Source: Xylographa opegraphella
Taxonomy: Eukaryota
Assembly: GCA_022813865.1 (NCBI GenBank)
Contig: JALDZX010000007.1
Coordinates: forward strand, 496,001-560,000
DNA length: 64,000 nucleotides
Direction: 5' to 3'
The notes beneath the pieces were generated by a model. That model ran no database searches. It saw nothing but the letters and a program-made list of their open reading frames with translations, and was not told where the DNA came from. A program made the position numbers and the translations under genes. Each line of letters opens with the position of its first letter. The first letter of the stretch is position 1. Of this stretch, positions 52,856 through 55,801 are shown piece after piece.

Positions 52856-53473
52856 ATGATACAGCTGAAGGCAAGTCGAGGACAATCTACTGTGCAGGCT
52901 ATGCTAACCGCTCAACCTAGACGATGCTTAACTGCATCGATAACTCCGGCGCATCGATAGTCGAGTGCGTTGCCAACCTCCGCATGAAAAGACACGCCAA
53001 GATCGGTACATCATTAATACGTATCTACACACGTATGGCTGCTGATTATGTCGTGCCAGGCGATCGTATTATAGTCGTCGTCCAGAAACAGCGCAACTTT
53101 GGTGAAGGCTCCGGCCCTGGTGGGAGCTCCGCCTCGACGGCTGCAGCGAACAAGGTCAGACGAGGAGATATACGGCACGCTGTCGTTGTGCGGACAAGGA
53201 AGAAGCTGCAGAGGAAGGATGGGATGGTAGTCCGATTCGATGACAACGCTTGCGTCTTGATCAACAAGGCTGGAGAACCTCTGGGGACGAGATTGACGAG
53301 TGAGTCCCCTTTCATATTATCACGCTATACTTGGAAGACTGGGCTCAGTGGCGCTTGCGAAAGCGGTTGATAGTATACACGAGTATATCTGACGAGTTAT
53401 AGGTATCGTGGGGTCTGAATTACGAGACAAGCAATGGTCGAAAATTTTGTCACTGGCGCCCATGCATGTATAA
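52856..53473 (+). CDS. mrpl38: Mitochondrial ribosomal protein uL14m (MRPL38)
   Basis: [16 protein letters not shown]...[13 protein letters not shown]...[10 protein letters not shown]...[13 protein letters not shown]...[10 protein letters not shown]. Three introns, the first GC-AG (52871-52920). Confidence 0.95.
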
Positions 53474-53728
53474 TACGGAATTGTTCAGTTTTTGCATTGA
53501 TGGAGTCGGAATTCTTTGGGAACTGTAAATATAGTACATAACTGCTCGCTCAGATTCGCCTTTTGACCGCCACAGCCCACTGGGTATCATTTCTCTGTAC
53601 CGAACGCCCTGTCGCTTCATGCAGGTTGAAGTGCCCAGAATGCAATCACGCCGGACCTCAAATGCCAGATTGGTTTTATGTCCTAAAACTCCTTGAAAAT
53701 GAAAAATGACCTCCACGCATACCGTTCG

Positions 53729-54534
53729 TTATTGAAAGATCGTCCCGCAGCTGCAACAAACGAAAAAGAGTTTCTGGCCGAGCAGGTTTGATCAGCCCTG
53801 TCGAGCAGAAGACAGAGGCAAAGAACGTTCAACCAACATACCATCCCTGTTTCCGAAGTTCTCTGTTGCGACTGGAAGAACACGGCTTCCATCTCTCGGC
53901 ATTTCGGACATTGCTTGTTCGACCGTGGCAGCTAGCAGGTGTAAGTCGCGTTAGCTTAAATGTTCGCACAGATATCAGCTATCTATGCCTGTGATGGCCG
54001 GCTCATCATGCTCGTCATGTGGTTCCGATACCACGAAGCTCTCATCTAGCTCGTCTTCAAATTCCTCGGACGTGTCTTCTTCGGACGCGTCCTCCATAAG
54101 ATCCTCTTCATAGTCGCCAGGCGCGATATCAACGAATCCAGAGCAAGCGGCTTGCCCACACATGATGCAGATGAGCTCATCACCACAAAGAGTGCAAGTA
54201 CAGAAGTCAGGTAAACCAACCGTTGGATCAGCTCCCACATCCTGAGTGACACCAGCGGTTTCTCCGACAGTGTTGTGCAAGTTGTTCCGAAAGACACAAG
54301 ACGAGGCAGCAGGCTCACTGAATTGGCAGGTTCGACAGGAAAACATAAGGGTATTGTTTAGGCGGTCTTCTTTGGGGTAAAGCATATTCGAACTAAATAT
54401 AAGTCAGCCACAGCAAGACAGTTGTATGACGCGTGGACGACTGACCATTCTCGACAAAAGCGAAATGTGATTTGTTCTTGACCTTTTGTTTGTTGCTGCT
54501 GCTCGGCATCCGATGGGGCTGGAGAGGCGGACAT
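53729..54534 (-). CDS. rpb9: RNA polymerase II subunit Rpb9
   Basis: [16 protein letters not shown]...CRTC...[18 protein letters not shown]...[23 protein letters not shown]. Introns 54393-54445, 53932-54220 and about 53774-53841. Confidence 0.95.
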
Positions 54535-54993
54535 TTTGGAGTATGTGGAACTCCGGATATTGAGATGTGAGAGTCGTGATGGTGAAGTTGGTGCTAAGCG
54601 TAGAGTGTTCCAGCGGATTGTTTGGTGCTGATGTTAGGTCGATGCAAAAAATGTGACAGAACGCGAAGTTTGACACATTCAGAGAATGGCGCTAAGCAAT
54701 GACTAAAGTCGTCAGCACTGTACGCTAGGCCGAATTGAATCGCGAAGCTAAGATACCTATTCAGCCCTACGATCTTCATAATCACGTGCTTTTTATCACA
54801 ATGAGAATATATAAGCACACGCACTGTACATATCATCCCCGATAGGAAGCTGCCCGCTGGTTGCGATTGTTACCAACTATTTACAGTCCGGCACATTATA
54901 TCGTCTTCTTGTGCTTCTATCTTGCCTTGCTGTATCGCAATTAGCACTCGGATGCTTTTTCTTTCTTGATTCGAAGTACTCAAACTGTTCTTA

Positions 54994-55801
54994 ATGGTGT
55001 GTATACAAGATTTCTGTAAAGCATACCCCGCACAAGTCATCCTCCACCTGGGTCTGGCCCAACAAATCCATTTCTCTACAGTTTCCAGTCACTTATAGCT
55101 TACTAATTGCTCGATGCAGTCTACCGCCGGCCTCCCTCCATCATGGGAGGTTCGCCACTCCAACTCTAAGAACCTCCCGTACTACTTCAACACATCAACC
55201 AAAGAGTCTCGATGGGAACCCCCTTCGGGTACTGACACCGAAGCCCTGAAATCATACATGGCAACACACCATTCCTCCGCTCCCATACGCTCCCCAGATG
55301 TGGCTAAAGATGGAGGCAAGATTCGTGCGGCACACCTGCTTATCAAGCATAAAGATAGCAGGCGGCCGAGTAGCTGGCGGGAGAACGAGATCACGCGGAC
55401 GAAGGAGGAGGCCATCAGTACGTTATTAGGTCATGAAGCTAGAATACGAAGTGGACAGGCTAGTCTGGGAGACTTGGCCATGACCGAAAGCGATTGCAGT
55501 AGTGCTAGGAAGAAGGGCGACCTGTGAGTTTGAACCCCAAAACCGGCGAGGAACGACAAGATAGCCGGAATACTTGTGGGCATGTCAACGACTCTGACTG
55601 GCGTTATAAATAGGGGCTATTTTGGCCGGGGAGATATGCAAAAGGAGTTCGAAGAAGCGGCCTTCGCGATGAAGCCGGGAGAGGTCAGTAACGTTGTAGA
55701 AACAGCGTCGGGTGTGCATTTGATAGAACGGTTAGTGTACATGGATATTCATTCTCTGCAAAATACTAACAGGCTAATATTTCAACTCCAGGCTTGAGTG
55801 A
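54994..55801 (+). CDS. ess1: Parvulin-type peptidyl-prolyl isomerase Ess1/Pin1 (Ssp1)
   Basis: WW domain GLPPSWEVRHSNSKNLPYYFN...SRWEPP and PPIase KIRAAHLLIKHKDSRRPSSW...SDCSSARKKGDLGYFGRGDMQKEFE...SGVHLIERLE*. First coding exon is probably ATG alone (intron 54997-55119). Confidence 0.95.

Follow-up and report, generated by a model that had tools for sequence, protein, structure and literature searches.

The second intron of rpb9 in the window, the 64,000-nt stretch of Xylographa opegraphella DNA analysed here, probably has two uses, serving both as an intron and as an alternative last coding segment whose retention would give an Rpb9 isoform without the C-terminal zinc ribbon (Zn2) and, with it, a variant of RNA polymerase II (Pol II). 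For decades, work on Rpb9, one of the core subunits of Pol II, has treated it as one protein with two ribbons. In the mechanism that we propose, splicing at a conserved weak donor, GTTGGT, would yield canonical Rpb9, composed of the N-terminal ribbon (Zn1), the linker and the TFIIS-type Zn2. Retention would let translation run past the DPT at the end of exon 2 into the intron and end at a TGA shortly before the branch point. The retained product would keep Zn1 and the linker, with Zn2 replaced by a Cys knuckle (C-T-x-C-G, usually followed by a CxxC) and an acidic tail. Such a Zn2-less variant may enter Pol II via Zn1 and the linker and may show altered TFIIS- or fidelity-related behaviour; in Rpb9, it is Zn2 that has been associated with fidelity and the TFIIS response. 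Retention typically affects introns that are long and have a poor donor, and we infer both that retention is the route and that the isoform protein accumulates. An initial sequence-only reading of this DNA had proposed a second Rpb9 isoform with an exchanged C-terminus that acts as a variant Pol II subunit; comparison supports a translated alternative C-terminus replacing the C ribbon, while the role as a variant Pol II subunit is what we infer from it.

The gene model derived from the window sequence places rpb9 on the minus strand in four exons (window 53729-54534). Exon 1 (54446-54534) opens with the start codon at 54534, giving the same N-terminus as in the public protein model P0002, and is followed by intron 1 (54393-54445; 53 nt, donor GTCAGT); the first CxxC of the N ribbon crosses the exon 1/2 junction. 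Exon 2 (54221-54392) encodes Zn1 and the linker, with DPT at its end, and matched the Pfam family PF02150 (Rpb9 N ribbon) with 29.2 bits against a cut-off of 25.2 (E 8.6e-07). Intron 2 (53932-54220) separates it from exon 3 (53842-53931), the start of Zn2, which matched PF01096 (TFIIS-type ribbon) with 32.3 bits against a cut-off of 21 (E 9.1e-08). Intron 3 (53774-53841; 68 nt, donor GTATGT) and exon 4 (53729-53773), which holds the end of Zn2 and the stop codon, complete the gene. The spliced product is an ordinary Rpb9 of 131 residues, like canonical Rpb9/POLR2I, to which Rpa12, Rpc11 and the C ribbon of TFIIS are paralogous. With PF02150, PF01096 and the DPTLPR linker all present, the gene is rpb9.

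Gene model and Pfam agree with the sequence-only reading that intron 2 is 289 nt long, has the weak donor GTTGGT and lies exactly between the two ribbons: it ends in TAG and splits the linker in phase 0, DPT closing exon 2 and LPR opening exon 3. From the donor onwards the frame stays open for 81 codons (P0001; 53978-54220) up to a TGA (53975-53977) that lies 43 nt before the 3′ splice site, and a candidate branch point, CTAAC, follows at 53950-53954, 23 nt from the 3′ splice site, as a consensus match only. Translation of 54220-53975 reproduced exactly the peptide reported earlier, including its two CxxC pairs and D/E-rich tail. The peptide has six Cys in the pattern C-x-C-x2-C-x6-C-x2-C-x4-C. 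According to alignments and to the AlphaFold model of its P0002 equivalent, a Cys-rich core with the motif C-T-L-C-G spans residues 6-27 (54140-54205); alignments and AlphaFold place an acidic tail, predicted to be disordered, at residues 36-81 (53978-54115). PF01096 is found only in the spliced form and is missing from the read-through form. The earlier remark that most other introns measure about 45-70 nt was compared with the two other introns of the window's rpb9 (53 and 68 nt) and with introns 1 and 3 at 12 loci of relatives (55-129 nt). When the interior of intron 2 was shuffled with dinucleotides preserved, 9 of 2000 shuffles (0.45%) remained open for at least 81 codons; the open frame is not a product of chance. 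A gene on the opposite strand over intron 2 was considered and set aside; the plus-strand ORFs are 52-54 aa long and Ser-rich, as expected for the antisense of acidic codons.

Orthologous introns were sought in metagenome contigs, which were scanned with patterns of the N ribbon only, so that the intron had no influence on what was retrieved. Of the 38 loci obtained, 27, representing 13 distinct sequences, carry an intron after DPT. Each of these 27 introns is long (185-419 nt), has a weak donor and contains an in-frame ORF of 23-128 codons that encodes C-T-x-C-G; among the 38 loci, none has an intron at the DPT site without an open frame. Two loci (L028, L029) are canonical, intronless and transcript-like, in L030, L031, L032, L036 and L038 DPT runs straight into LP or LQ with no intron there, and L033-L035 and L037 belong to more distant eukaryotes in which the N-ribbon frame stops before DPT. 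Exon 3 is intact in 25 of the 25 loci that reach it. The donor of intron 2 is GTTGGT in 9 of 12 distinct lineages and GTGGGT, GTTTGT or GTGAGA in the others, unlike the donors of introns 1 and 3, which are mostly consensus-like in the 12 lineages. Just 30-43 nt lie between the stop codon and the 3′ splice site in the window and in 8 of the 13 distinct sequences, with the stop shortly before the branch point; the frame thus takes up the whole intron apart from what the 3′ splicing signals require. Intron 2 lengths are 0, 1 or 2 modulo 3 across lineages, which rules out stop-codon read-through into exon 3. As a separate observation, intron 1 is absent in L013, L018, L019, L022 and L023 and the long intron 2 is kept there; it thus persists where another rpb9 intron was lost.

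Selection on the ORF was evaluated with NG86 dN/dS and a Fisher test on three pairs of loci. For L003-L005, identity was 81.6% in intron 2 and 66.1% in intron 3, and the ORF gave a dN/dS of 0.08 (p=2e-9) with a dS of 1.04 against 0.44 for the flanking exons. The corresponding values were 87.7% and 66.7% identity, dN/dS 0.27 (p=1.7e-4) and dS 0.34 against 0.31 for L018-L019, and 67.3% and 50.0% identity, dN/dS 0.40 (p=7e-4) and dS 0.96 against 1.03 for L013-L018. Intron 2 was better conserved than intron 3 in all three pairs, and dS in the ORF was at or above that of the flanking exons, indicating that silent sites are not unusually constrained. All 11 indels within the ORF were multiples of three, and the three indels past the stop codon in the same pairs were of 1, 5 and 2 nt. 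Differences at codon positions 1, 2 and 3 numbered 3/6/22 for L003-L005 (p=4e-5); the bias was not significant for L018-L019 (12/9/19, p=0.14) and L013-L018 (31/31/40). These comparisons indicate that between lineages the intron ORF behaves as coding DNA under purifying selection at the protein level. The examination of orthologous introns that had been suggested in the sequence-only reading thus finds the open frame and the CxxC pattern kept across two fungal classes, with dN/dS below 1.

Conservation is concentrated in the first part of the peptide. In 38 aligned sequences D, P, T, the following V and C-T-x-C are invariant, and the G and the third Cys are kept in at least 90%; the V after DPT is invariant as it is forced by the donor. 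In a 40-sequence alignment (A4) four Cys are invariant. The usual form of the core is CxxCG-x4-CxxC, and the second CxxC is absent in the lineage of L013, L018 and L019. Of the Cys4 motif described at first, therefore, the leading C-T-x-C-G is the lasting part, and the second CxxC has been lost in several lineages. In Dothideomycetes an acidic or His-rich spacer is followed by a very conserved core, PEMCT[LM]CGQEILCP[FI]C, and a predicted helix carrying the motif AE[QK]RER forms the C-terminal end of the peptides.

The acidic tail contains an 18-residue stretch that is conserved within the Xylographa-like group, and its last approximately 25 codons are not conserved. In the window's clade, contigs of two related organisms align with the window only over 53713-54547 (coding region and introns), with 98 differences in 835 nt. 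The DNA-level comparison with one of them, organism B, covers the window up to 54071 and so the tail, not the Cys-rich part: 19 sites differ in the last 97 nt of the ORF (19.6%), compared with 9 changes in the 43 nt after the stop, 8 in the 68 nt of intron 3 and 5 in the 90 nt of exon 3. The 19 tail differences are distributed 4/8/7 over the codon positions, without an excess at the third, and an indel of +2 nt shifts the last tail codons, which indicates that the end of the tail drifts. The tail is hence weakly constrained, and in the window's clade it evolves about as fast as non-coding DNA. It is also shortened elsewhere, the ORF being reduced to 35 codons in L001/L002 and to 23 codons in L011/L012 and ending early in L016 and L026. 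Between L023 and L024/L025, whose contigs are 98.1% identical over the intron, a nonsense change at ORF codon 95 reduces the ORF from 128 to 94 codons, and database proteins of 219 and 185 aa match both tail lengths; this difference resembles a natural polymorphism that truncates the tail.

Fast evolution of the tail and its shortening in several lineages would suit a different explanation, namely regulated unproductive splicing, in which retention lowers Rpb9 output, the retained mRNA is degraded, and the peptide has no function, its conservation reflecting splicing-regulatory sequence and common descent. The conserved weak donor agrees with this, as does the position of the read-through stop, which in the gene model precedes the exon 3/4 junction by 133 nt; by the stop-to-junction distance rule of nonsense-mediated decay, the retained-intron mRNA may be a target of that pathway. 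Both transcript-like contigs are also spliced: L028 and L029, the only such contigs among the 38 loci, carry fully spliced canonical rpb9. They look like assembled transcripts from a Dothideomycete-like species with normal splicing at DPT|LPH; they share an identical N ribbon with P0048, a read-through ORF from genomic sequence on a 109-kb contig, and L029 also has the convergent uL14-like gene described below. However, constraint at the RNA level does not predict dN/dS values of 0.08-0.40, nor 11 of 11 in-frame indels and the 3/6/22 pattern of L003-L005, and it leaves unexplained a C-T-x-C-G that is invariant at the protein level where the DNA is saturated (dS >1 or not computable). Moreover, unproductive splicing needs an early stop rather than a frame that closes only 30-43 nt before the 3′ splice site. 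We therefore regard a functionless peptide as unlikely and favour a translated isoform.

Proteins carrying the peptide are present in public databases. A word-indexed search scored on the 81 residues only returned five proteins 54-77% identical to the peptide, in all of which an Rpb9 N ribbon precedes the read-through peptide; Xylographa soralifera and X. trunciseda are the sources of two. Four more distant matches were added when 1.84 billion representatives were searched exhaustively with HMMER. In P0007 the N ribbon is strongly diverged and the peptide core is kept, including DYEEDLMED. A profile built from 12 intron peptides and searched against protein databases retrieved 57 proteins of similar length and two longer ones. 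In all 59 the read-through follows an rpb9 fragment or N ribbon, and PF01096 occurs in none of them. Among the named matches are the Lecanoromycetes Xylographa, Gyalolechia and a Lecanoromycetidae sp., and the Dothideomycetes Cladosporium, Cercospora berteroae, C. beticola, Septoria linicola and Sphaerulina musiva; a further entry is listed as Quercus suber. The frame has been kept in many fungi that form lichens or are associated with plants. No named match in this profile search (59 proteins) came from Eurotiomycetes, Sordariomycetes or Leotiomycetes.

The consistent lack of PF01096 in peptide-bearing proteins also bears on an in-frame insertion, in which an internal donor would be joined to the same acceptor and the Cys-rich segment would come to lie between Zn1 and Zn2. 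The window does offer phase-0 GT dinucleotides at 54034 (GTGGTA) and 54031 (GTATCG), 103 and 100 nt from the acceptor, but as donors both hexamers are poor, the 12 lineages share no consensus-like phase-0 donor at a corresponding position, and intron lengths are not consistently multiples of three, so that an insertion of this kind is very improbable. That the frame is a chance opening in a long intron, carried into the databases by gene predictors reading through, is hardly credible: an 81-codon frame at the frequency seen in shuffles is not impossible genome-wide and several of the database entries are automatic predictions, but the frame recurs in every locus with the intron, across two classes, with purifying selection and in-frame indels, and the divergence of the related loci rules out that they are mis-assembled copies of one sequence.

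The read-through form sits unremarked in public annotation as 'RPB9' or 'hypothetical protein', including a RefSeq model of Cercospora beticola. The public models P0105, P0091, P0049, P0042, P0002, P0004, P0022, P0038 and P0071 end in the read-through and omit the exons of the C ribbon. RPB9 models of this kind are likely mis-annotations of the canonical protein, and the annotation of RPB9 would be corrected accordingly (C. beticola RefSeq; Xylographa, Cladosporium, Septoria and Sphaerulina models).

Next to canonical Rpb9, the read-through product would differ in ending in a CxxCG-x4-CxxC knuckle and an acidic tail, with no TFIIS-type ribbon. The window peptide matched no Pfam family at E≤10. 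When 12 intron peptides were compared with Pfam, at most one of them matched any given zinc-ribbon model, and the matches, to Zn_Ribbon_TF, Zn_ribbon_3, Zn_Ribbon_1 and rubredoxin-like models, were weak and below threshold and came from single members of the alignment (best E 0.024). A profile search of PDB sequences with the peptide gave nothing above threshold (best E 2.1), and the ESM Atlas yielded only rpb9-named clusters, with scores of at most 0.84, which serve as leads only. Like zinc knuckles and ribbons of the rubredoxin type (CxxCG), the window peptide has two CxxCG knuckles; unlike them, it has six residues between the knuckles and reaches no family threshold. A further difference from known zinc ribbons is that only the first knuckle is invariant, so that not every lineage has a Cys4 site within one chain. 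AlphaFold was run with alignments on two read-through proteins, P0002 and one from a Dothideomycete. The predicted pLDDT was 80-92 for the N ribbon, a moderate 68-74 for the Cys knuckle and 53-60 for the acidic tail, which is predicted to be disordered, and the C-terminal helix of the Dothideomycete model was at about 75.

A protein of the proposed composition resembles constructs made in yeast. Yeast Rpb9 1-52, that is Zn1 and linker, is reported to be enough for its role in ATG1 transcription and autophagy, with Zn2 dispensable, and Zn1 and linker also suffice for the ATG1/autophagy role in orthologues tested in yeast (PMC9638876). The dispensability of Zn2 for the ATG1 role indicates that an Rpb9 without Zn2 can be functional, and the natural isoform would keep the same Zn1 and linker as these engineered truncations (PMC9638876). 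The yeast truncations are laboratory constructs, whereas here the cut would fall at a conserved splice junction, with a conserved Cys motif and an acidic tail added. If true, a maintained Zn2-less form would amount to a naturally occurring counterpart of the truncations with which Rpb9 function has been dissected. For SKI7/HBS1, another report describes an ancient conserved alternative splicing event in Ascomycota by which one gene gives two proteins (PMC3597508). That case concerns a different gene and is backed by transcripts; the mode proposed for rpb9 is retention of an intron with a coding frame of its own.

The distribution over two classes raises the possibility, which we put forward tentatively and consider doubtful, that a dual-product rpb9 dates from before the split of Lecanoromycetes and Dothideomycetes, with two kinds of subunit 9 whose ratio would be set by use of the weak 5′ splice site. 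If so, properties of the polymerase (TFIIS response, fidelity and start-site choice) would be coupled to splicing conditions. The proposed isoform, if real, would join a small set of fungal splicing events that diversify proteins and are deeply conserved. Literature searches retrieved no description of an rpb9 retained-intron isoform, although supplementary tables of fungal splicing surveys could list the event. A conserved coding retained intron is a known kind of event; none was previously known in rpb9.

The surroundings of rpb9 are partly conserved as well. Head to head with it lies a gene encoding a WW domain followed by a rotamase-like sequence (window 55099-55527 and upstream, plus strand), which we take to be Ess1/Pin1-like. 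The start codon of rpb9 (54534) and the neighbouring ORF, which starts at 55099, are approximately 560 nt apart, and the two Pol II-related genes may share a divergent promoter. By tblastn, 23 of the 38 loci (L001-L021, L026 and L027), the two Dothideomycete loci among them, have the same neighbour upstream of rpb9 and on the other strand. On the other side, convergent with rpb9, lies a ribosomal protein L14-like ORF (window 52921-53370, plus strand), which by its sequence probably encodes mitochondrial uL14; this convergent arrangement recurs in 14 of the 38 loci (L003-L012, L016, L017, L029 and L030).
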